Assembly: GCA_040386275.1 (NCBI GenBank)
Contig: JAZKFU010000009.1
Span: 22,367-86,366 of the forward strand
DNA length: 64,000 nucleotides
Reading direction: 5' to 3'
Source: Patescibacteria group bacterium
GTDB taxonomy: Bacteria > Patescibacteriota > Minisyncoccia > Phycocordibacterales > UBA918
The notes beneath the pieces were generated by a model, which saw only the letters and a program-made list of their open reading frames with translations, had not been told where the DNA came from and made no database searches. Positions 26,506 through 38,166 of this stretch are shown here, in pieces. The stretch's first letter is position 1, and every line of letters starts with the position of its first letter. Both the position numbers and the translations under genes were made by a program.

Positions 26506-28191
26506 ATGGACTCTGTCATCCGAACCGCCGTTGCTGAAGCGTTAGAAACTCTCGGTTTACCTGAGGCAGATTTTTCTATTGAACACCCACATGAATTTAA
26601 TCATGGGGATTTTGCTTGTAACGTAGCTATGGTTGTCAGTAAAGAAGTGGGGCAGGCGCCACGAGTAATCGCCGAACAAATCGTTACGGAACTGTTTAAT
26701 CAAATTGAATATATAGATCGTATTGAAATTGCGGGTCCTGGATTTATAAATTTCTTTTTAAGTCGAGATTTTTTTGTTGCCGAAACCAACCGCATTATTA
26801 GTGCGGGAGAGAGTTGGGGACGAAACGATTCATGGGAAGGTAAAAAAGTAATTGTTGAATATACAGACGCTAACCCGTTTAAAGAATTTCATATCGGACA
26901 CTTATTTACCAACGCGGTCGGGGAAAGTATTGCGCGTTTATTTATGATGGCCGGAGCAGATGTTAAGCGTGTATGTTACCAGGGTGATGTTGGGTTACAC
27001 GTTGCGCATGCCATCTGGGGGATGCAAAAAAGCGGACTCACTGCTACCAGTGCTTTTACTGCCAAAGATCTAGGCAAAGCCTATGCAGTTGGAGCTACCG
27101 CCTACAAAAATGACGAGACCGCTAAAGCAGAAATTATTGCCTTAAATAAAATAATCTACGAACGTAGTGATGATTCCGTCACGGCACTGTATGATGCGGG
27201 ACGCACGGTGTCACTTGAGTACTTTGAATCAATATACAAACTAGTAGACACACAATTCTCAGAATACTTTTTTGAAAGCGAAGCAGCGGGTGAAGGGAAG
27301 TCGATTGTCTTAGCTCACCCAGAAGTATTTCCTCAAAGTGATGGGGCGTATATATTTGAAGGTGAAAAATACGGATTGCACACTCGCGTGTTTTTGAATA
27401 ATCAGGGACTGCCTACCTATGAAGCCAAAGAGCTAGCGCTGGCAAAACTAAAGGAAGAACGTCTCGGTGCGTATGACCACTCAGTGATCTCAACCGCGAA
27501 AGAAATTAATGAATACTTTAAAGTGCTCAAAACCGCTATGGGATTTGTGTATCCTGAGTTGGCCGCCAAAACCGAACACATCGGTCACGGGATGGTGCGG
27601 TTGGCTACCGGTAAAATGTCGTCACGTACGGGAGATGTTATTTCGGCGCTTGATTTTATTGAGGATGTCGCGCACTCCGCTAAAGAAAAAATGGTCGCCT
27701 CGGGCGTGGTAACTCCAAGTAGTGACTTGGCGCACGATATTGCTATGGCCGCGATTAAGTACGCTACGTTGCGGGGCAATATTTTACAGGATTCAATTTT
27801 TGATAAAGAGCGAGCGCTCAGTTTTGAAGGGGATTCGGGCCCGTACTTACAGTACACACACGCTCGAATTTGCAGTGTCCTTGATCGGGCCCGTTTGGCG
27901 GGAATTGAGCCGTCACGTAAACAGGTGCCCGATGAGACCTACCTGGTAGAAAAAACTTTGTACCGGTTTGAGGAAATAGTCATGCAAGCGCTTGATGAGC
28001 GAGCACCGCATAAAGTAGTGGGGTATTTAACTGAACTAGCAGCTGCCTTTAACACGTTTTACGCCCACGAAAAAATCGCTGATCCGAGTGATACCTACGC
28101 CGCCTATAAATGTCAGGTGGCCCAAGCTGTGGCGATTACCCTCAAAAACGGACTTTTTGTTTTGGCGATTAAAGCTCCTAATCGTTTGTAA
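26506..28191 (+). CDS. argS: arginyl-tRNA synthetase
   Basis: Class I HIGH (FHIGHL), the KMSSRTG variant of KMSKS, and a C-terminal DALR-like anticodon-binding domain. Confidence 0.9.
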   Translation: MDSVIRTAVAEALETLGLPEADFSIEHPHEFNHGDFACNVAMVVSKEVGQAPRVIAEQIVTELFNQIEYIDRIEIAGPGFINFFLSRDFFVAETNRIISAGESWGRNDSWEGKKVIVEYTDANPFKEFHIGHLFTNAVGESIARLFMMAGADVKRVCYQGDVGLHVAHAIWGMQKSGLTATSAFTAKDLGKAYAVGATAYKNDETAKAEIIALNKIIYERSDDSVTALYDAGRTVSLEYFESIYKLVDTQFSEYFFESEAAGEGKSIVLAHPEVFPQSDGAYIFEGEKYGLHTRVFLNNQGLPTYEAKELALAKLKEERLGAYDHSVISTAKEINEYFKVLKTAMGFVYPELAAKTEHIGHGMVRLATGKMSSRTGDVISALDFIEDVAHSAKEKMVASGVVTPSSDLAHDIAMAAIKYATLRGNILQDSIFDKERALSFEGDSGPYLQYTHARICSVLDRARLAGIEPSRKQVPDETYLVEKTLYRFEEIVMQALDERAPHKVVGYLTELAAAFNTFYAHEKIADPSDTYAAYKCQVAQAVAITLKNGLFVLAIKAPNRL

Positions 28192-28295
28192 CGAGATACC
28201 TAGGCAAGCTCCAATTTCGTGATACTATAAAAATGCTGGTCTGATACATCAGTTTTATTAGTATGTCTGATACACATACGTAACCTAGTATTTAT

Positions 28296-31200
28296 ATGAA
28301 TAAACAACATGGTCGGGAAAATGACTCAGTGGCCGTTGTGCCTGAGACCGAAAAAAGTGACGTAGCAACTCGTGAAGAATTGATGCAAGCATTTTGGCTT
28401 GAGCACGATATTTTTAATAAAAGTCTGGCTACTCCAGCTGGGGATACGCCCAAAGGTAGCTACACCTTTTATGACGGTCCACCGTTTGCGACGGGCACTC
28501 CTCACTACGGGCATATTTTAGCCAGTACCATCAAAGATGCGGTGCCCCGATTTTGGACCATGAACGGTATGCGGGTAGACCGAAAGTGGGGCTGGGATTG
28601 TCATGGACTACCACTAGAGAATTTAATTGAAAAGAAACTCGGACTGGCTACTAAACGGGATATTGAAGAGTACGGCGTAAAGAATTTTAACGAAGCTGCT
28701 CGTGGTGCGGTGATGGAATATGCTGACTACTGGAAAATGGCCATTCCCCGCATGGGACGATGGGCCGACATGGAGGACGATTACAAAACCATGGACAATA
28801 CCTACACCGAAAGTGTGTGGTGGGTTTTTTCTGAATTACATAAAAAAGGATTAGTGTTTGAAGGCTTTAAAACTATGCATCTCTGTCCACGCTGTGGGAC
28901 TACGTTGAGTAATTTTGAAGTGAATCAAGGCTATAAAGATATTAAAGATATTGCCGTTACGGTTAAGTTACCGTTACTTGATGATGCTGGTAACGTTACC
29001 GATACCTCACTGTTGGTCTGGACCACGACTCCGTGGACGTTGCCGGGGAATATGGCTGCTGCTGTTCACAATGATATTCAGTATGCAAAAGTAAAAGTAA
29101 CCACAGAAACCGGAGCTGAGTTTTTTATTCTCGCTAAAGAGCGCTTGTCACAATTAGGAGATGTATCCTATATGATAGAGGAAGAACTGAAAGGATCGAC
29201 ACTGGTCGGACGTTCCTACCAGTCACCATTTACTTTTTGGCAAAACCAAGATTTTGACAAAACCAATGCCTGGAAAATTTGGCACGCGGACTATGTCGAA
29301 GTCGGGACTGAAGGCACCGGGGCAGTGCATATCGCGCCAGCGTATGGAGATGATGATATGCAGTTAGCCAAAGCCAACAACGTGCCAATCATGCACCACG
29401 TTGATACGGCCGGGCACTTTATGCCGTTGGTGACAGAATTCGCGGGACGGTTGGTAAAACCAAAAGATGACGATGCTTCGGGGATTGATCACAAAGATAC
29501 TGATATTGAAATATTAAAGTCTTTGCAAACCGCAGGCAAAATTTTCAAAAAAGAAAACATCACTCACAGCTATCCGCACTGTTGGCGCTGTGATACACCG
29601 TTACTTAACTACGCGACCACCTCGTGGTTTGTGAATGTGCCGGCAATTAAAGATGCGCTTGTAGCAAATAACGCTCAAGTACACTGGGTGCCAGAGCATG
29701 TGGGCACTAATCGCTTTGGAAAATGGCTTGAAGGAGCGAGAGATTGGGCTGTCTCGCGACAGCGGTATTGGGGAGCACCCTTGCCAATTTGGAAAAATCC
29801 TAAAACCGGTGAGTACAAAGTTTTTGGTTCGCTCGCCGAGTTGCAACAGTATATTCCGCAAACCAATAACACCTTCTTTGTGATGCGTCATGCGCAAGCG
29901 CACAGTAATCTGGGCGATGCCGTAATTGATGCGATTCCGGATGAAGAAAATCCGTTAACTGATACCGGTCGCGAGCAATGTAAAGTAGCCGCCGAGCAAT
30001 TGAAAGACGCGGGCATTACTCGCATTGTGCACTCAGGGATGCAGCGCACGCGCGAGACGGCGCTCGCTGTGGCGGCTGAGCTTGGGTTACCAGAATCAGC
30101 GGTGACGGTAGATACTCGCATTACCGAATTACAAACTGGTAACGCCTTTGAAGGGAAAACCTGGGCAGAGTACAACGCCAACTACGCGAGTGAAGAAGAA
30201 AAGTTCACCAAAGTAATTCCCGGGGTAGAAAACCGCTACGACCTTATTAAACGGGCGGGAGCATTCTTGTATGACTTTAATGCGAGTCATCAAAATGAAA
30301 CTGTCTTAGTAGTGGCGCACGCCAGTTCAACGTTTGCGTTACGGTGCGTCGCTGAAGGCGCCGATCATACCCGTGTCATTGAACTTAAAAAGGAAGGGTA
30401 CTTTGGTAATGCTGAAGTCCGTCCGTTACCGTTTACTCCGGTACCGCATAATGATAATTACGCACTTGATTACCACCGGCCGTACATTGATGAGATTGAG
30501 CTTATTGATACTGACGGTACTAAGCTTGTGCGCGTGCCCGATGTATTTGACTGTTGGTTTGAAAGTGGTTCAATGCCGTATGCGCAACATCATTTCCTCG
30601 GGGAAGGACGAGCAGACTTTGAGGGAACAAAATTCCCGGCGCAGTTTATTGCTGAAGGTCTTGATCAGACGCGCGGGTGGTTCTATTCACTGATTGTGTT
30701 AGGCACAGCCTTATTTGGAAAATCACCGTTTGAGAATGTAATAGTAAACGGGTTAGTGCTCGCGGAAGATGGAAAAAAGATGTCTAAATCTCTCAAGAAC
30801 TATCCTGACCCAATGGAGTTAGTTGATCGTGTAGGAGCGGATGCTATTCGATACTACATGCTCACCTCACCATTGATGAAAGGGGAAGATCTAAACTTTT
30901 CGGAAAAAGAAGCACTTGAGTTACAACGAAAAAATATCGGCCGGTTGCATAACGTGCTTGCTATGTACGAGATGTTTGCCGACGGCACTAAAGCCAATGC
31001 AAGTTCCGACAACATACTTGATCGTTGGATTATTACCCGACTTAATCAAATCATTTCTGAAGCCACTGCCGGATACAAAACCTACGAACTAGATAAAGCC
31101 AACCGACCAATTGCTGATTTTATTGATGATGTATCGGTCTGGTATCTTCGCAGAAGTCGAGAACGCTTAAAGGCCGATGATGAAGCTGACAAAGCTTTAC

Positions 31201-31847
31201 CCATTGGAACACTCCGCTATATCTTGCGCGAACTTGCAAAAGTCATGGCTCCCGCTATGCCATTTTATGCTGAGTATTTATATCGTGCAGTAAAAGATGA
31301 GGGAGAAGCAGAAAGTGTACACCTAACTGCTTGGCCACAAGGTGGAGAAGTAAGTACTGATCTTATCGAGAAAATGAAAGAGGTACGTATGTTTGTGACG
31401 GCTGGTCTTGAAGCTCGCACCAAAGCCAATATCAAAGTTCGCCAACCATTGTCAGAATTATTTATTCGCACAACGATGCTTCCGGATACTGAGCTACTCG
31501 ATTTAATTAAAGATGAGCTCAATGTAAAGGAGGTGAGTCTCGACGGAGTTGGGGAAGACAACAGTCCCCGCATTAAACTCATGACTGACCTCAGTCCCGA
31601 GTTGCTCGCCGAAGGAGCCGTCCGGGAAGTTATGCGGGCTGTTCAAGATATGCGTAAAGATGCCGGCCTAGAACCAAGTGACCGTATCACGCTCACGATT
31701 GATACCGACGAAAAAGGCCAGCAAGCTATTGCTGTACATCAAGACATGCTCCTCAAAACCGTCGGAGCAACAGATGTTGTATTTGAAGTAACTTTTGGAA
31801 CGAGTGTCACGAGTGGTAACTATAGTTTTATTTGTTCAATTTCGTAA
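28296..31847 (+). CDS. ileS: isoleucyl-tRNA synthetase, eukaryote-like type 2, carrying an inserted histidine-phosphatase (PGM-like) domain
   Basis: YDGPPFATGTPHYGHIL (type-2 HIGH), WTTTPWTLPGN, RDWAVSRQRYWGAPLPIW and KMSKSLKN; residues 526-712 (nt 29871-30431) carry VMRHAQAHSN, SGMQRTRETA, ELQTGNAFEGKTW and LVVAHASS, the histidine phosphatase superfamily motifs. Confidence 0.9.
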   Translation: MNKQHGRENDSVAVVPETEKSDVATREELMQAFWLEHDIFNKSLATPAGDTPKGSYTFYDGPPFATGTPHYGHILASTIKDAVPRFWTMNGMRVDRKWGWDCHGLPLENLIEKKLGLATKRDIEEYGVKNFNEAARGAVMEYADYWKMAIPRMGRWADMEDDYKTMDNTYTESVWWVFSELHKKGLVFEGFKTMHLCPRCGTTLSNFEVNQGYKDIKDIAVTVKLPLLDDAGNVTDTSLLVWTTTPWTLPGNMAAAVHNDIQYAKVKVTTETGAEFFILAKERLSQLGDVSYMIEEELKGSTLVGRSYQSPFTFWQNQDFDKTNAWKIWHADYVEVGTEGTGAVHIAPAYGDDDMQLAKANNVPIMHHVDTAGHFMPLVTEFAGRLVKPKDDDASGIDHKDTDIEILKSLQTAGKIFKKENITHSYPHCWRCDTPLLNYATTSWFVNVPAIKDALVANNAQVHWVPEHVGTNRFGKWLEGARDWAVSRQRYWGAPLPIWKNPKTGEYKVFGSLAELQQYIPQTNNTFFVMRHAQAHSNLGDAVIDAIPDEENPLTDTGREQCKVAAEQLKDAGITRIVHSGMQRTRETALAVAAELGLPESAVTVDTRITELQTGNAFEGKTWAEYNANYASEEEKFTKVIPGVENRYDLIKRAGAFLYDFNASHQNETVLVVAHASSTFALRCVAEGADHTRVIELKKEGYFGNAEVRPLPFTPVPHNDNYALDYHRPYIDEIELIDTDGTKLVRVPDVFDCWFESGSMPYAQHHFLGEGRADFEGTKFPAQFIAEGLDQTRGWFYSLIVLGTALFGKSPFENVIVNGLVLAEDGKKMSKSLKNYPDPMELVDRVGADAIRYYMLTSPLMKGEDLNFSEKEALELQRKNIGRLHNVLAMYEMFADGTKANASSDNILDRWIITRLNQIISEATAGYKTYELDKANRPIADFIDDVSVWYLRRSRERLKADDEADKALPIGTLRYILRELAKVMAPAMPFYAEYLYRAVKDEGEAESVHLTAWPQGGEVSTDLIEKMKEVRMFVTAGLEARTKANIKVRQPLSELFIRTTMLPDTELLDLIKDELNVKEVSLDGVGEDNSPRIKLMTDLSPELLAEGAVREVMRAVQDMRKDAGLEPSDRITLTIDTDEKGQQAIAVHQDMLLKTVGATDVVFEVTFGTSVTSGNYSFICSIS

Positions 31848-32085: not shown

Positions 32086-32670
32086 ATGTCATACAACACA
32101 TACATTACTGAGGCGCTCATCTGCGGCAGCTTCGATTCCAACACTGCTGATAAATCGTACCTCCTGTTTACCAAATCGGCGGGGATGATTTATGCGTCGG
32201 CGCGCAGTGTGCGCGAAGAGCGAAGTCGTCAACGGTTTGCCTTGCAAGATTTTGGAATAGTGACCGTGTCACTTATTAAAGGGAAGACGGGGTGGCGAAT
32301 TGGGAGTGTGCAATCGGAAGGAAACTTGTTTGCAAGCGCACCTAATCGGTTGGTGCGGGGAAGTGTGGTGCGAATGTTTAAATTTCTGCGACGTTTTGCC
32401 GGTGCCGAAGAACCAGAGCCTATTATCTATGACGAATTTTGTCTTGGGCTGTCGTATCTCACAAAACCTGAAGTAGAAAATCGAACCCTGATTGAGGAGG
32501 TGTTACAAGCCCGGATGTTGTATCATTTGGGGTATATTGCCGATACCGAAGATAGTAATTTTATCTTTGAACAACCACTTCTAGTGGTAATTACGTCTGA
32601 GTTGTTGCCTCCATTGCTTCCACGATTAAAAACAATCACCGGCAATGCAACTTCGGCCAGTCATTTATAA
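32086..32670 (+). CDS. recO: RecO-like DNA repair protein (short form)
   Basis: N-terminal OB-fold pattern ..LLFTKSAGMIYASARSVREERSRQRFALQDFG resembles the RecO N-terminus; the call is weak. Confidence 0.4.
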   Translation: MSYNTYITEALICGSFDSNTADKSYLLFTKSAGMIYASARSVREERSRQRFALQDFGIVTVSLIKGKTGWRIGSVQSEGNLFASAPNRLVRGSVVRMFKFLRRFAGAEEPEPIIYDEFCLGLSYLTKPEVENRTLIEEVLQARMLYHLGYIADTEDSNFIFEQPLLVVITSELLPPLLPRLKTITGNATSASHL

Positions 32671-32687
32671 AGATAAGTGATATACTG

Positions 32688-34661
32688 GTGGATATTAGTA
32701 TTATGTCACCGCTTAAAGATCAAGCTCAAATTGATGAAATTCGACGTCGTTTATACGAACGTGGAGCGCAACCGGGGGTCACACCCAGGCATAATTTATC
32801 AAAGGTAGCTGAAACTCCCCAAACGCGGTGGCCGGGACAAAAACCGTTACCGCAACCCGAAATCTATCCTGCTGATCAACGCGGAGAAGTACTTGATGAA
32901 CCAACTGTTGACGTCCATGAAGTTAAGGTGCCCAAAAAGCGATTTAGATTTACCTTCCGAACGATAATGCTAATCTTGGCGCTCGGTACTTTTTTAGCGG
33001 CGATTTTATTTTCAAGTTTCTACATGCTGTTTGGAAACAATCAAATTTCCAACAAAAATATTAGTATCAACATTAATGCTCCCTTAACTATTGGTGGAGG
33101 GGAAGTAATGGATATTCAGATATCGGTCACCAACCAAAATAAAGTCCCCATTGAATCTGCAGTGCTGATTGTGAATTATCCAGCCGGATCCAAATCAACG
33201 GATTTGCCCGCAAAAGATCTCTATGAAGAGCGCATTACCCTCAACCGGATAGAGGCTGGTGAAGCAATTAATATTCCTCTCAAGGCCGTCATGTTTGGCG
33301 AAGAAAACCAAGAGCGGCAAATTAAAGCCACCATTGAATATCGTTTGGTTGATTCAAACGGAACTTTCTACAAAGAGAGTGATCCGTTAACTTTTAAAAT
33401 CAGTTCTTCGCCGGTAGTGATTCGCGTTGAATCAATTAAAAAAGTATCAGCGGGACAGGATATTGAAGTAAAATTGACCATTCAATCAAACGCGTCGACG
33501 CCATTAAAAGACGTACTTGTCACCGCCAATTATCCAACCAATTTTGATTTTAGCAGTGCAGAACCGACTCCTGTTTTTCGAGAGAGCGCTTGGTTGATTA
33601 AAGAATTACTCCCCGAAACCTCCACTACCATTGTGATTAAAGGGGGAATTCTTGGTAAGCAAACGGAAGAATTTCAAATTCAGTTCTCAGCCGGAACCGC
33701 CCAGCAAGATAATCAATTTATGATTGGATCGGTTCTAGCAAATGCCATCGCTGACTTTGTGATTGAACAACCGTTTATTGATGTGGGGATTGGCGTTAAT
33801 AATTTAACGACTGAAGTAGTGACACTGCCAACCGGCCAAGACACGCAGGTTGAAGTATCAGTTCAAAACACGTTGGATCAGACCCTCTACGATATGGCAG
33901 TTGAAGTGGCGGTTAAAGGAAATATTTTGGTACGGGAAAATGTGCAGGTAAACAAAGGGTTCTATGACTCGGTGAAAGATGTGATACGTTTTGACCCCTC
34001 AGGAGATAAAACGTTAGGGGCGGTCGCTCCAGGAGCCACAAAAAAATTCATCTTCACTCTAAGGCCCGGTGATCAAAAATCAACCCCATCATACACCCTG
34101 ACTGCAAATGCGTACGCTCGGCGTGTAAACGAAACGAGTGCCACTGAACAATTAGTGGGTACCGCCAAAACAGAAGTTAAATTTACTTCCTCGGTAGCGA
34201 TAACCCGAACCATTGGCCGTAGAGTGCCTGGGTTTACTGATGTGGGACCAATTCCACCCGCACCTGATATCAAAACTTCGTACACCGTTACGTTAACGAC
34301 CAGTGCCGGAGGGAATGATGTGACCGGTGGAGTGCTTACTACTTCTTTGCCCCAGTACGTCAGTTGGGAGAACCTCAGTAGTGGTGATGGCACGCTGGCC
34401 TTTAACCCGATATCAAAAGAACTAACCTGGACGGTAGGGGAAATTAAAGCCGGAGCCAAGAAAACCACCACTTTCCAAATCGCCCTCTTGCCAAGTCAGA
34501 ACCAAATTGGTACAACTCCTGCAGTACTTGGTACGCAACGATTTAGAGCGACTGACCGATTTACCAACCAAGTAATACGTGCCGAAGGTCCGCCTGCTAG
34601 TTCAGAATTAGGTATTGAATCTGGTTTTGAGCAAAATAACGGTGAGGTGACTCGACCCTAA
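32688..34661 (+). CDS. membrane-anchored surface protein with repeated beta-sandwich (DUF11/CARDB-like) segments
   Basis: TM helix near residue 95 and a long Thr/Val-rich extracellular region. Confidence 0.5.
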   Translation: MDISIMSPLKDQAQIDEIRRRLYERGAQPGVTPRHNLSKVAETPQTRWPGQKPLPQPEIYPADQRGEVLDEPTVDVHEVKVPKKRFRFTFRTIMLILALGTFLAAILFSSFYMLFGNNQISNKNISININAPLTIGGGEVMDIQISVTNQNKVPIESAVLIVNYPAGSKSTDLPAKDLYEERITLNRIEAGEAINIPLKAVMFGEENQERQIKATIEYRLVDSNGTFYKESDPLTFKISSSPVVIRVESIKKVSAGQDIEVKLTIQSNASTPLKDVLVTANYPTNFDFSSAEPTPVFRESAWLIKELLPETSTTIVIKGGILGKQTEEFQIQFSAGTAQQDNQFMIGSVLANAIADFVIEQPFIDVGIGVNNLTTEVVTLPTGQDTQVEVSVQNTLDQTLYDMAVEVAVKGNILVRENVQVNKGFYDSVKDVIRFDPSGDKTLGAVAPGATKKFIFTLRPGDQKSTPSYTLTANAYARRVNETSATEQLVGTAKTEVKFTSSVAITRTIGRRVPGFTDVGPIPPAPDIKTSYTVTLTTSAGGNDVTGGVLTTSLPQYVSWENLSSGDGTLAFNPISKELTWTVGEIKAGAKKTTTFQIALLPSQNQIGTTPAVLGTQRFRATDRFTNQVIRAEGPPASSELGIESGFEQNNGEVTRP

Positions 34662-34690: not shown

Positions 34691-36079
34691 ATGACAAACC
34701 CCGACAGTACGACAAACAAAATGGAAAAAATCACCGCCCTATGTAAGCGTCGGGGATTTGTGTTTCAAGGTTCGGATATTTATGGGGGACTGCGAGGTAC
34801 CTGGGATTTAGGTCCGCTTGGGGTTGCTTTGAATAACAACATCAAACGTGAGTGGTGGAAGATGTTTGTTGATGGACGAGAGGATATGTATGGACTCGAT
34901 GCGTCTATATTAATGAACGCCAAAGTGTGGGAAGCAAGTGGCCACACTGGCGCTGGTTTTGCTGACCCGATGCTTGAGGATACCGTGACAGGTGAACGCT
35001 TCCGAGCTGACCATTTTCTAAAAGATAACGGGTACGATGCGGAGGGGCTGTCACTCGAAGCCATAGATGCACTAATTACAGAGAAGGGAATTAAAAGTCC
35101 TAAAGGAAATCCGCTGTCAAAAACTCGAACGTTTAACATGATGTTTGAAACTCGGATTGGCGCTACTGCCGGACCAGAAGGTTTGGTGTACTTGAGACCC
35201 GAAACAGCACAAGGAATTTTTGTGAACTTTAAAAATGTAGTTGACTCAATGGCGCCAAAGATGCCATTTGGAATTGGACAGATTGGGAAGGCGTTTCGAA
35301 ATGAAATTGCTCCTCGTGAATTTTTGTTTCGCGTGCGAGAGTTTGAGCAGATGGAAATTGAATACTTCGTAAAAGAGGAAGAGTGGAAAGAACGATTTGA
35401 AGAGTGGCGCTTGGCCATTTGGAATTGGTTTGACCATCTTGGACTTTCGAGAGAAAACGTACAGGAGCTCGAAGTAGCCGAAGGAGACCTTGCTCACTAC
35501 AGTAAACGGACTATTGATTTTGAGTACAATTTTCCTGGTAAAGGGTTTGATGAGTTGGCTGGGTTTGCGTACCGAACCGACCATGACTTAAAAGCGCACA
35601 TGAACGCGAGCGGGGTTTCAATGGAATATATTGAATCAGATGGGACGCGCTTCGTGCCTCACGTGCTTGAACCAAGTTTTGGTGTGGGTCGAGCAATAAC
35701 CGCAGTATTGTGTGAAGCGTATACGGAAGACGCAATGGGTGAGGATGGCCGAACGTTTCTTAAATTGCCAAAACACCTCGCGCCGTATGTAGCCTGTGTC
35801 TCACCGTTGCTTCGTAACAAACCAGAGTTGGTAGAAAAAGCTCGGGGAGTGTTTTCTATCCTTAAAAAAGAGTTTGGAAATGTCACCTGGGATGACAATG
35901 GAAATGTCGGAAAACGCTACCGACGCCAAGATGAAATTGGTACCCCATACTGTATCGTGATTGATTTTGACACTCTCGGAGAAAATCCAGAATTACTTGA
36001 TACGGTCACCGTCCGTAATCGTGATACGGGGGAGCAAGAACGAATGGCTATTACGGAACTTGTAAACTACTTAAAATAA
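34691..36079 (+). CDS. glyQS: glycyl-tRNA synthetase (alpha2 dimeric class II type)
   Basis: ITALCKRRGFVFQGSDIYGGLRGTWDLGPLGV.L..N.K..WW and FR.E..PREFLFRVREFEQMEIEYF (motif 2). Confidence 0.9.
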   Translation: MTNPDSTTNKMEKITALCKRRGFVFQGSDIYGGLRGTWDLGPLGVALNNNIKREWWKMFVDGREDMYGLDASILMNAKVWEASGHTGAGFADPMLEDTVTGERFRADHFLKDNGYDAEGLSLEAIDALITEKGIKSPKGNPLSKTRTFNMMFETRIGATAGPEGLVYLRPETAQGIFVNFKNVVDSMAPKMPFGIGQIGKAFRNEIAPREFLFRVREFEQMEIEYFVKEEEWKERFEEWRLAIWNWFDHLGLSRENVQELEVAEGDLAHYSKRTIDFEYNFPGKGFDELAGFAYRTDHDLKAHMNASGVSMEYIESDGTRFVPHVLEPSFGVGRAITAVLCEAYTEDAMGEDGRTFLKLPKHLAPYVACVSPLLRNKPELVEKARGVFSILKKEFGNVTWDDNGNVGKRYRRQDEIGTPYCIVIDFDTLGENPELLDTVTVRNRDTGEQERMAITELVNYLK

Positions 36080-36606: not shown

Positions 36607-38166
36607 ATGTCAGACAAAAAACCCCGTTATATCACCACCACCTTGCCGTATGTAAACGCTGAACCGCATATTGGGTTTGGGTATGAACTGGTGGTTGCCG
36701 ACACACTTGCACGCCACTGGCGCTTACAGGGGCACGAAGTATTCTTTACCACCGGTACCGACGAACACGGCCAAAAAATTGCTGAAAAAGCAGATAGTGA
36801 GAGTGTCCCGAGGCAACAGTATGTCGATACCTACGCCGCAAAGTTTGCGGAGCTAAAAGGAGCGCTCAATATTTCCAATGACAACTTTATCCGGACCACT
36901 GACGCAACGCATAAAGCCGCGGCTCAGGCTATCTGGAACAAATGTCTAGCTAAAGGTGATATCTATAAAAAAACCTACAAAGGTCTCTACTGCGTCGGGG
37001 ATGAGATGTTTTTACGTGATAGTGACTTAGTAAATGGACGGTGTCCGAATCATCCAAATGTAGACCCGGTAGAAATTGAAGAAGAAAATTACTTTTTTAA
37101 ACTCTCAGAATATCAAACTAAACTTACTAAATATTTATCCGATCCGACGCGGACTCTGTCTGAATCGTACCGCACCTGGGCCTTGCAGTTTGTGACGGCT
37201 GGACTTGAGGACTTGAGTATCTCCCGCAGTAAAAAGCGGATGGACTGGGGGATTGATGTGCCAGGGGATGATGAGCACGTCATGTACGTGTGGTTTGACG
37301 CGTTGACCAACTACATCAGTACGCTCGGCTGGCCTGAAGACGCAGCTGGTAATTTTAAAAAATTCTGGGTAGAGGGTGAGACGGTGCAGTTAGCGGGGAA
37401 AGATCAGGTTCGATTCCAATCTATTATTTTTCAGGCAATGTTGATGTCGGCTGATGTACCCACCACCGATACTATTTGTTATCACGGGTTTATTAATAGT
37501 GGGGGGCAGAAAATGAGTAAGAGTCTCGGCAATGTAATTTCGCCGTATGAACTTGTTGCACGCTACGGCACTGACGCTACGCGGTATTTACTGTTGCGCC
37601 ATGTGCACCCGTTTGATGATACTGATGTTACCTGGGACAGACTGGATGAATGGTACACCGCGGACTTGGTAAATGGGCTAGGGAATCTAGTAGCCCGGGT
37701 GATGAAAATGGCCGAGACTCATGTCGAGAAACCAGATTATTTAGATTATGATGAAGCATATAAGTTAGTTTCTCAGCAAGCGCAAATATTGGTACCAAGA
37801 CATGACAATCAAATATCAGTCCAATATAAAACTGAGATCGATAATTTTTTACTTCAAGATTCAATAGATTTAATTTGGGCACATATTCAACTTATTGACG
37901 AAGAGATTACAAAAAGTGAACCTTTTAAAGTCATTAAAACTAATCCTGAAGAAGCTAAAAAAATTATAATTAAGCTTAGAAGTGATCTCACAGAGGTTGC
38001 TTTGTTAGTACTGCCATTTATGCCTTATACTGCAAAAATTATTCTCGAAGCTATAGCTCAAAACAAAAAACCTGAAAACCTTTTTAATCGACTTCCACTC
38101 AAAACTGAGTCAATAGCTTTTAAAATTGACGGCGGTAATGCTAATCTTCAAATAGATGGAAAATAA
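36607..38166 (+). CDS. metG: methionyl-tRNA synthetase (short form without C-terminal dimerisation domain)
   Basis: TTTLPYVNAEPHIGFGYE (HIGH-like), the Zn knuckle CPNHPN, and KMSKSLGN. Confidence 0.9.
   Translation: MSDKKPRYITTTLPYVNAEPHIGFGYELVVADTLARHWRLQGHEVFFTTGTDEHGQKIAEKADSESVPRQQYVDTYAAKFAELKGALNISNDNFIRTTDATHKAAAQAIWNKCLAKGDIYKKTYKGLYCVGDEMFLRDSDLVNGRCPNHPNVDPVEIEEENYFFKLSEYQTKLTKYLSDPTRTLSESYRTWALQFVTAGLEDLSISRSKKRMDWGIDVPGDDEHVMYVWFDALTNYISTLGWPEDAAGNFKKFWVEGETVQLAGKDQVRFQSIIFQAMLMSADVPTTDTICYHGFINSGGQKMSKSLGNVISPYELVARYGTDATRYLLLRHVHPFDDTDVTWDRLDEWYTADLVNGLGNLVARVMKMAETHVEKPDYLDYDEAYKLVSQQAQILVPRHDNQISVQYKTEIDNFLLQDSIDLIWAHIQLIDEEITKSEPFKVIKTNPEEAKKIIIKLRSDLTEVALLVLPFMPYTAKIILEAIAQNKKPENLFNRLPLKTESIAFKIDGGNANLQIDGK

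Follow-up and report, generated by a model that had tools for sequence, protein, structure and literature searches.

A histidine-phosphatase domain nested in the CP3 subdomain of a patescibacterial isoleucyl-tRNA synthetase and its likely origin upstream of ileS

The DNA considered here (the window: 64,000 nucleotides (nt) of a Patescibacteria group bacterium, NCBI GenBank assembly GCA_040386275.1, contig JAZKFU010000009.1, positions 22,367 to 86,366 of the forward strand) carries an ileS gene whose product, a type-2 isoleucyl-tRNA synthetase (IleRS), holds a histidine-phosphatase domain nested within its CP3 subdomain. The observation is real, and misassembly is excluded. An earlier, sequence-only reading of the window had drawn attention to this architecture; beyond what it proposed, comparison with other genomes supports the view that the arrangement is lineage-wide, that it extends to valyl-tRNA synthetase (ValRS), and that the domain derives from the upstream neighbour gene of ileS. 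The account developed below as a whole, in which an active phosphomonoesterase from that upstream gene became nested in the synthetase and tied to the class Ia aminoacylation cycle, is judged moderately probable on comparative sequence grounds. The gene and its principal parts, with residues numbered in amino acids (aa), are as follows.

28296..31847 (+): ileS, type-2 isoleucyl-tRNA synthetase with nested phosphatase domain, 1183 aa (open reading frame; TIGR00392 ileS above cutoff)
29853..30467 (+): segment that insert-free orthologues lack, aa 520-724 (alignment; AlphaFold and Pfam for the domain)
29877..30377 (+): His_Phos_1 domain proper, aa 528-694 (Pfam PF00300)
28500..28514 (+): HIGH-type signature PHYGH, aa 69-73 (motif position; invariant in 42 relatives)
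28929..29579 (+): CP1 editing domain, about aa 212-428 (match to 1wk8, the editing domain of an IleRS in isolated form)
29739..29774 (+): CP2-CP3 linker RDWAVSRQRYWG, aa 482-493 (motif position; the yeast equivalent lines the tRNA A76/reveromycin pocket)
29775..29852 (+): N-terminal part of CP3, aa 494-519, CxxC zinc-knuckle cysteines lost (alignment to insert-free IleRS, which has WxCxxCG there)
30468..30572 (+): remainder of CP3, leading back into the Rossmann fold (DYHRPYID ... VFDCWFESGS), aa 725-759 (alignment resumes at yeast/human residue 498)
30777..30791 (+): KMSKS signature, aa 828-832 (motif position)
31020..31454 (+): Anticodon_1 anticodon-binding domain, aa 909-1053 (Pfam E = 4.5e-28)
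31560..31793 (+): DUF5915, C-terminal domain typical of type-2 IleRS, aa 1089-1166 (Pfam E = 6.9e-17)

Positions 28296-31847 of the forward strand form one unbroken reading frame of 1183 aa, whose product, scanned whole against NCBIfam, scores 857 bits for TIGR00392 (cutoff 621.4). Pfam recognizes tRNA-synt_1 in two stretches (aa 30-520 and roughly 740-880) with His_Phos_1 (PF00300; E = 1e-25, 91 bits against a cutoff of 21.7) between them, and Anticodon_1 followed by DUF5915 downstream of the insert. The sequence-only reading had described a type-2 IleRS with a nested histidine-phosphatase domain and had anticipated exactly this Pfam result, His_Phos_1 within tRNA-synt_1; the description holds, the motifs that it quoted all lie where it placed them, and its boundaries for the insert (aa 526-712, nt 29871-30431) are essentially right when set beside those obtained from insert-free orthologues (aa 520-724, nt 29853-30467). 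Affiliation with the type-2 enzymes is evident from phmmer comparison with solved structures, in which eukaryotic cytoplasmic IleRS, Priestia megaterium IleRS2, and Thermus thermophilus IleRS match at E = 1e-184 to 1e-201 and the type-1 enzymes of S. aureus and H. pylori less well (1e-73 to 1e-85).

The synthetase itself looks functional, its HIGH, KMSKS, and CP1 editing motifs being invariant or nearly so. Across a 42-sequence alignment of relatives, no variation is seen at P69, H70-H73, K828, S830, or K831, and conservation of M829 reaches 90% or more, with T68 and S832 falling outside the conserved columns. Both CP1 editing motifs, the Thr-rich WTTTPWT (aa 242-248) and the GTG-VH-AP-G-D motif GTGAVHIAPAYGDDD (aa 340-354), are intact, and the key residues of each are invariant in the same alignment; downstream of the insert, VFDCWFESGS is found at aa 750-759. 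The gene thus appears to encode a working type-2 IleRS with the same set of domains and motifs (HIGH, KMSKS, the CP core, CP1, CP2, CP3, Anticodon_1, and DUF5915) as the T. thermophilus (1ILE), P. megaterium IleRS2 (8C8U), and yeast cytoplasmic (7D5C/8WND) enzymes, from which it differs in that its CP3 holds a nested enzyme domain of ~205 residues where theirs has a loop of 5-10 residues.

The site of insertion can be placed precisely by alignment to human and yeast IleRS, in which residues 518/520 of the window protein correspond to residue 490/492 and residues 724/725 to residue 498, the ~205 residues between them filling the place of a 5-7-residue loop. In yeast IleRS, CP3 spans residues 459-526, and the CP2-3 linker (453-ARDWNVSRNRYWG-465) forms part of the pocket for the tRNA 3' end and for reveromycin A (PMC7955072). 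As the insertion maps to yeast residues 492-498, it lies inside CP3, 27 residues past the CP2-3 linker; no CP3-tRNA contacts are reported in the yeast IleRS-tRNA paper. The earlier placement of the domain in the "catalytic core" is therefore correct as to an insertion but not as to its site, which is the peripheral CP3 subdomain after the CP2-3 linker and not the Rossmann core. The topology of CP3 differs among Candida, Thermus, and Staphylococcus IleRS, and a zinc motif is present in only some of them (PMC7191050), so that CP3 is a known variable module, tolerant of change.

In insert-free Patescibacteria IleRS (40-48% identical to the window IleRS), the corresponding loop is 8-10 residues long and is flanked by the zinc-knuckle cysteines CxxC...CxxC or CxC. 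These CP3 zinc-knuckle cysteines, shared by T. thermophilus IleRS and insert-free Patescibacteria IleRS, have been lost from the window IleRS, and the CP3 halves of its clade (29775-29852; 30468-30542) read WKNPKTGEYK / IDTDGTKL instead. The most divergent fused IleRSs (loci L018 and L019) retain the cysteines, as CxxC...CxxC or CxC, despite being fused, which argues that the insertion preceded cysteine loss in the window clade. Local GC content at 29.9-30.2 kb is 0.50-0.53 against about 0.45, a value inside the local range.

The insert, scanned alone, matches PF00300 at E = 2.7e-27 (96 bits), and its predicted active site comprises the following residues, each conserved in all 120 of the best-matching protein clusters described below.

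29886..29891 (+): Arg531-His532, RHA variant of the RHG motif (RHAQAHSN 531-538), with His532 the predicted phospho-acceptor (120/120 clusters)
29907..29909 (+): Asn538, predicted phosphate-binding residue (120/120 clusters)
30045..30047 (+): Arg584, second catalytic arginine (MQRTRETA 582-589; 120/120 clusters)
30126..30128 (+): Glu611, predicted general acid (RITELQ 608-613; 120/120 clusters)
30318..30320 (+): His675, second catalytic histidine (VVAHASS 672-678; 120/120 clusters)

The earlier statement that both catalytic histidines are intact is thus borne out, for H532 and H675 alike, in the window and throughout the 120 clusters; the third residue of the RHG motif is alanine in 86 of these clusters and glycine in the other 34. 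Such constancy is set within a rapidly changing domain, as the insert has a median identity to the query of 57% (73% for the rest of the protein) and a mean column conservation of 0.65 (0.85-0.89 for the catalytic parts), which makes it the fastest-evolving part of the protein save the C-terminus. Invariance of six catalytic residues despite fast overall evolution shows purifying selection on them and is a signature of retained catalysis. At greater distance, among the 150 best representatives from clusters at 50% identity, the six-residue signature RHNREH is intact in 134 of 167 domain copies, and the remaining copies are mostly truncated fragments or carry conservative changes (E to D, N to Q), with a handful of non-conservative ones; both copies are intact in the double-domain IleRS variants and in the ValRS P0237, which are taken up below.

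The nested domain is, on the basis of its sequence and predicted fold, a branch-1 histidine phosphatase of the PhoE/PspA/CobC/GpgP-like clade. An AlphaFold model of the insert alone is of high confidence (pLDDT 95.1, pTM 0.91), and its Foldseek neighbours are PspA, GpgP, PhoE, CobC, RosC, and the histidine-family phosphatase HFP (TM about 0.77, probability 1.00). By sequence, the closest solved proteins are the Hydrogenobacter phosphoserine phosphatase PspA (4IJ5, E = 7e-20), the histidine-family phosphatase 9MMH of a riboflavin pathway, and PhoE/YhfR, CobC, and GpgP, whereas the cofactor-dependent mutases match far less well. The solved phosphatases (PspA, 4IJ5; PhoE/YhfR, 1H2E and 1EBB; CobC alpha-ribazole phosphatase, 6NRU and 6E4B; GpgP Rv2419c, 4PZ9; RosC; HFP, 9MMH) share with the insert its fold, catalytic residues, cap, and comparable size (about 190-210 aa), the cap region over the active site being normal in the window protein (aa 611-653). 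They differ from it in that the window domain is embedded in another enzyme, is only 17-27% identical to them, and has RHA for RHG, as in most of the 120 clusters. Assignment as a cofactor-dependent phosphoglycerate mutase (dPGM) was rejected (TIGR01258, 19.7 bits against 81.7; NF038349, 55 against 225); with the dPGM models so far below cutoff, the earlier label "PGM-like" stands at the level of the superfamily only, and mutase identity does not.

Two further properties of the domain can be recorded. Mean net charge is -7.5 for embedded domains and +10.8 for stand-alone ones, a difference that probably reflects proteome composition, since the whole window IleRS is acidic, and that is not informative on RNA binding. 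Among the nearest solved relatives are several phosphatases of flavin nucleotides, namely RosC and the riboflavin-pathway HFP (9MMH, 8S6Q, and 9EMU as fold matches; 9MMH also by sequence). In many bacteria, ribF (riboflavin kinase/FAD synthetase) lies directly upstream of ileS; this is the slot of the stand-alone phosphatase gene discussed below, although the correspondence may be coincidence.

The architecture is widespread. Among the 120 best clusters at 90% identity, drawn from a collection of 5.8 billion proteins, every one combines PF00300 with IleRS domains (65-100% identical to the query, 1117-1269 aa); the sequences come from NCBI, JGI, ENA, and Logan assemblies, and the organisms, where named, are Patescibacteria, Paceibacteria, Parcubacteria, or Pacebacteria. 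Public databases label these proteins "class I tRNA ligase family protein" or "isoleucyl-tRNA synthetase". In addition, 19 GTDB species representatives, labelled Kaiserbacteria, Yonathbacteria, Paceibacterota, or Parcubacteria, with some metagenome-assembled genomes labelled Saccharibacteria, encode an IleRS with the domain at exactly the same site, the identity of the insert falling to 30-35% in the most distant of them; as the alignment used for the GTDB scan (A3) reaches close relatives only, 19 species is a lower bound. The sequence-only reading had proposed to look for the same insertion in related genomes of the candidate phyla radiation and Parcubacteria, and both sets contain it. When a library of 1.84 billion representatives (clusters at 50% identity) was searched with a profile of the insert, 128 representatives were recovered at E<=1e-30, and among the best 150 representatives the domain is embedded in IleRS in 102, of which 27 are full length.

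The origin of the domain is suggested by its closest non-fused relatives, which are Patescibacteria proteins of 186-206 aa annotated as "broad specificity phosphatase PhoE" (JGI) or "histidine phosphatase family protein". The genomic location was examined for six of these stand-alone homologues (P0272, P0292, P0336, P0327, P0334, and P0332), and in all six cases the phosphatase gene (186-202 aa) immediately precedes an ileS of 923-990 aa without PF00300, in a locus with the order argS - phosphatase - ileS - recO - DUF11/CLIPPER protein - class II aminoacyl-tRNA synthetase (aaRS). A distant homologue taken as a control, P0375, has no ileS nearby. The phosphatase and ileS genes are closely packed, with stop and start codons overlapping in L050 and L053 (ATGA, 4 nt) and in L055 (8 nt) and with gaps of only 6 nt in L057 and 10 nt in L056; the overlaps suggest translational coupling of the stand-alone phosphatase to ileS. 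The six phosphatases share only about 36-45% identity with their common query. Relative to the window insert, the stand-alone PhoE-like phosphatases belong to the same clade and have the same length and neighbourhood, but are separate polypeptides, 21-31% identical to it (some stand-alone representatives are 45-48% identical to other embedded copies). The entire stand-alone protein aligns to the insert end to end, which indicates that the sequence of an entire gene was carried over with hardly any linker.

The corresponding neighbourhood of the window is made up of the following features.

26506..28191 (+): argS, arginyl-tRNA synthetase, upstream anchor (Pfam Arg_tRNA_synt_N, tRNA-synt_1d, DALR_1; same position in L050-L057)
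28192..28295 (no strand): argS-ileS spacer, 104 nt, the slot of the stand-alone phosphatase gene or genes in sister lineages (open reading frame coordinates)
32086..32670 (+): recO-like, downstream anchor (Pfam RecO_N E = 2e-4, weak; RecO_N/RecO_C at the same position in L050, L051, and L057)
32688..34661 (+): DUF11/CLIPPER-like large protein, downstream anchor (Pfam PF01345; same family and position in L050, L053, L055, and L056)
34691..36079 (+): class II aaRS (tRNA-synt_2b and HGTP_anticodon), downstream anchor (Pfam; same position in L050 and L053)

The order argS-ileS-recO-DUF11-class II is conserved across Paceibacteria loci. No second His_Phos open reading frame is present in the whole window, and the 19 fused loci likewise have the embedded copy only, with argS directly upstream wherever the sequence extends that far. 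Fused loci without a separate copy and split loci with an insert-free ileS are thus complementary forms in the loci sampled, and a functional link between the phosphatase and ileS would seem to predate the fusion.

Several side observations concern these neighbourhoods. In L055 (5001-6195) and L056 (5001-6180), the insert-free ileS is immediately preceded by a tandem pair of stand-alone phosphatase genes, in parallel with the double-domain fused forms; the pair is also reminiscent of the paralogues PspA and PspB, the first of which is the closest solved relative. At L053:1096-4188 and L055:1749-4542, restriction-modification genes (N6_N4_Mtase with DpnII, or DNA_methylase with HATPase) and a PIF1 helicase gene stand between argS and the phosphatase-ileS pair, the phosphatase gene staying joined to ileS and not to argS. 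In the window, four aaRS genes occupy one strand between 26506 and 38166 (argS, ileS, the class II enzyme, and a metG-like gene at 36607-38166), with the recO-like gene, the DUF11 gene, and an unannotated 141-aa open reading frame between them.

Nesting is not confined to one loop or to one synthetase. Eight IleRS variants of 1400-1470 aa carry two phosphatase domains (P0200, P0204, P0215, P0187, P0207, P0251, P0225, and P0241). In P0187, P0207, P0251, and P0241 CP3 holds both domains, one on each side of the DLHK motif, and each copy is orthologous across these proteins; P0204 and P0215 have a domain between MPYA and FIAEGxDQTRGWF, and in P0200, P0204, and P0225 a domain follows the KMSKS region and precedes the anticodon-binding domain, giving independent nestings at no fewer than four distinct insertion points in IleRS. 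P0237 (L059:703-5319, on a 47.8-kb contig) is a bona fide ValRS (NF004349, 849 bits, cutoff 704), has the Val_tRNA-synt_C domain, and contains two nested copies of the same phosphatase clade, one of them in the CP3-equivalent loop. Other nested ValRS copies are located in the CP2 region or in tandem, and among partial ValRS-like proteins two copies are present in P0266 and four in the fragment P0122; complete copies in these IleRS and ValRS proteins keep the catalytic signature, except in P0122 and P0266, where two copies depart from it non-conservatively. At the single locus L059, a gene for a PemK/MazF-family toxin (162-596) is directly upstream of the ValRS with two phosphatase domains. A protein of 387 aa, P0188 (L060:977-2140), fuses the same phosphatase clade to a Sua5/YciO/YrdC domain (threonylcarbamoyl-AMP synthase family, t6A pathway); it is known from one Logan contig of 3.7 kb, did not reappear when the 90% clusters were searched, and may be either genuine or a local artefact. 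If genuine, it would add another adenylate-forming, tRNA-related partner, but it is not used here as evidence for such a link.

These data can be assembled into an evolutionary and mechanistic proposal. In related Paceibacteria the phosphatase is encoded by a separate small gene directly upstream of ileS, and in the lineage of the window its coding sequence (a domain of about 195 aa) would have been relocated into the tolerant CP3 surface loop, yielding a bifunctional enzyme with its two activities at a fixed 1:1 ratio. We infer that the domain is catalytically competent as a phosphomonoesterase: His532 would be transiently phosphorylated, the phosphate would be held by Arg531, Asn538, Arg584, and His675, and the leaving group would be protonated by Glu611. 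The substrate class favoured here is a small phosphomonoester, perhaps nucleotide-like, in preference to a macromolecule; this choice follows from the nearest folds, from the cap that the domain has kept, and from the variety of loops that accept it. Physical linkage to class Ia synthetases appears to have been selected, which would imply functional coupling, and the phosphatase activity may accordingly be tied to the class Ia aminoacylation cycle. A more specific proposal, put forward tentatively and more doubtful than the general account, is that IleRS and ValRS in Paceibacteria need a histidine phosphatase of their own, supplied by a translationally coupled upstream gene or by a domain nested in CP3 or another loop. 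That partner would contribute a step of aminoacylation not recognised so far; for instance, it might restore a tRNA 3' end that is phosphorylated or blocked, or break down a nucleotide by-product or an inhibitor at the enzyme.

Several points weigh against so close a partnership. Gene adjacency is a weaker sign of shared function in very compact genomes, and nesting in several loops suggests that exact geometry is not needed, a pattern that fits tethering or co-expression as well as it fits channelling. The AlphaFold model of the full-length protein (pLDDT 72.9, pTM 0.56) has its conserved catalytic core below 50 pLDDT, and the orientation of the phosphatase relative to the synthetic and editing sites is not reliable in it. 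Furthermore, the insert falls below the cutoff of every NCBIfam equivalog, including those for CobC (TIGR03162, 64 bits against 162.9), PspA (NF045917, 47 against 350), SixA (TIGR00249, 33 against 74.5), and GpmB (NF002901, 38 against 261); together with the low identity to solved relatives noted above, this means that no substrate can be transferred to it.

Of the competing explanations, the one that survives best, although it is considered unlikely, is that the domain is a housekeeping phosphatase for general phosphate or metabolite salvage, its adjacency to ileS and its nesting having arisen from genome compaction and loop tolerance with no mechanistic coupling. Such an explanation would accord with the extreme compactness of Patescibacteria genomes, whose genes overlap, with the structural variability of CP3 among IleRSs and the varied sites of insertion, and with the "broad specificity phosphatase PhoE" label that JGI gives the stand-alone homologues. 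Nevertheless, in-frame nesting within a loop is far rarer than end-to-end fusion, yet it recurs at four or more IleRS sites as well as in ValRS, and adjacency to ileS holds in six of six loci even though the phosphatases have diverged to the extent given above; recurrent nesting and adjacency argue for selection for physical linkage with class Ia synthetases specifically.

It has also been considered that the domain might be a tRNA 3'-end phosphatase, removing a 3'- or 2'-phosphate, a pyrophosphate, or a 2',3'-cyclic phosphate from the CCA end, for example after the action of a toxin or nuclease, with the same enzyme then aminoacylating the tRNA. (Pyro)phosphorylation of the CCA 3'-OH is a known toxin strategy, the insertion in CP3 lies just past the linker that lines the A76 pocket in yeast IleRS, and both partners, IleRS and ValRS, are tRNA-handling class Ia enzymes; the Sua5/TsaC-type fusion P0188, if genuine, would point the same way. 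This possibility is nonetheless distinctly unlikely, in that the nearest solved relatives all act on small molecules and the insert keeps their normal cap, no histidine phosphatase acting on RNA ends was found in the open-access literature, CP3 is without reported tRNA contact in the yeast complex, and the varied sites and up to four copies are unlike a precisely aligned path for the tRNA end; nor is there a clear reason for the repair of tRNAIle and tRNAVal only.

A structural or regulatory pseudo-enzyme, which would stabilise CP3 in place of the zinc knuckle or sense a phosphorylated ligand without turnover, is suggested by the absence from the window clade of the CP3 zinc-binding cysteines that insert-free relatives keep, but is highly improbable, as the six catalytic residues are invariant in 120 clusters despite fast evolution and as L018 and L019 are fused and still have the cysteines, so that the insertion was not their replacement. 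Hydrolysis of a misactivated aminoacyl-adenylate or aminoacyl-tRNA, an activity offered in the sequence-only reading, was set aside: neither compound is a phosphomonoester, which makes the reaction chemically unlikely for a phosphomonoesterase, and with CP1 editing intact it would be needless. Lastly, an assembly or gene-calling artefact, whether a chimeric join or two genes read as one, can be given virtually no credence, given a single frame, flanking IleRS halves that are collinear and complete, and the same layout in 120 clusters from independent assemblies in four repositories and in 19 species genomes.

With respect to precedent, a literature search that covered open-access papers only found no account of an aaRS with a histidine phosphatase nested in it or acting as its partner; the absence is not proof. 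An IleRS with an accessory enzyme domain is not in itself without precedent, since NCBIfam includes a curated IleRS model with an extra enzyme domain, NF040702 (ileS_w_GNAT), which matches the IleRS part of the window protein; its extra domain, however, is a GNAT acetyltransferase, which belongs to another family, the window protein (300 bits against a cutoff of 1999) is not a member, and no acetyltransferase Pfam match is present in the window IleRS. Fusion of a CobC-like His_Phos domain to a nucleic-acid enzyme is represented by NF005567, the bifunctional RNase H/acid phosphatase of the Mycobacterium Rv2228c type, which ranks second among the NCBIfam models that the insert matches (E = 8e-17, 62 bits against a cutoff of 326); that protein is an end-to-end fusion with RNase HI, whereas the window domain is nested inside the synthetase.

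The aaRSs are among the best-studied enzymes, and new catalytic modules within them are rare, the CP1 editing domain being the classic example. In the present case an enzyme whose active site is intact lies inside IleRS throughout a bacterial class and occurs again in ValRS. The split and fused forms, together with the conserved neighbourhood, constitute strong comparative evidence for an undescribed functional partnership. Should that partnership prove not to be mechanistic, the Paceibacteria loci would still provide an unusually clear natural case of a neighbour gene relocated into a loop of the next gene, and the tolerance of CP3 for insertions would be useful for synthetase engineering. 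If the reading of a dedicated phosphatase partner is true, it would represent a new accessory catalytic activity of aaRSs, a gain of the same kind as that of the CP1 editing domain; and, if the partnership is mechanistic, it would point to a new requirement or quality-control step in the charging of tRNA by ultra-small symbionts that are not yet routinely culturable.

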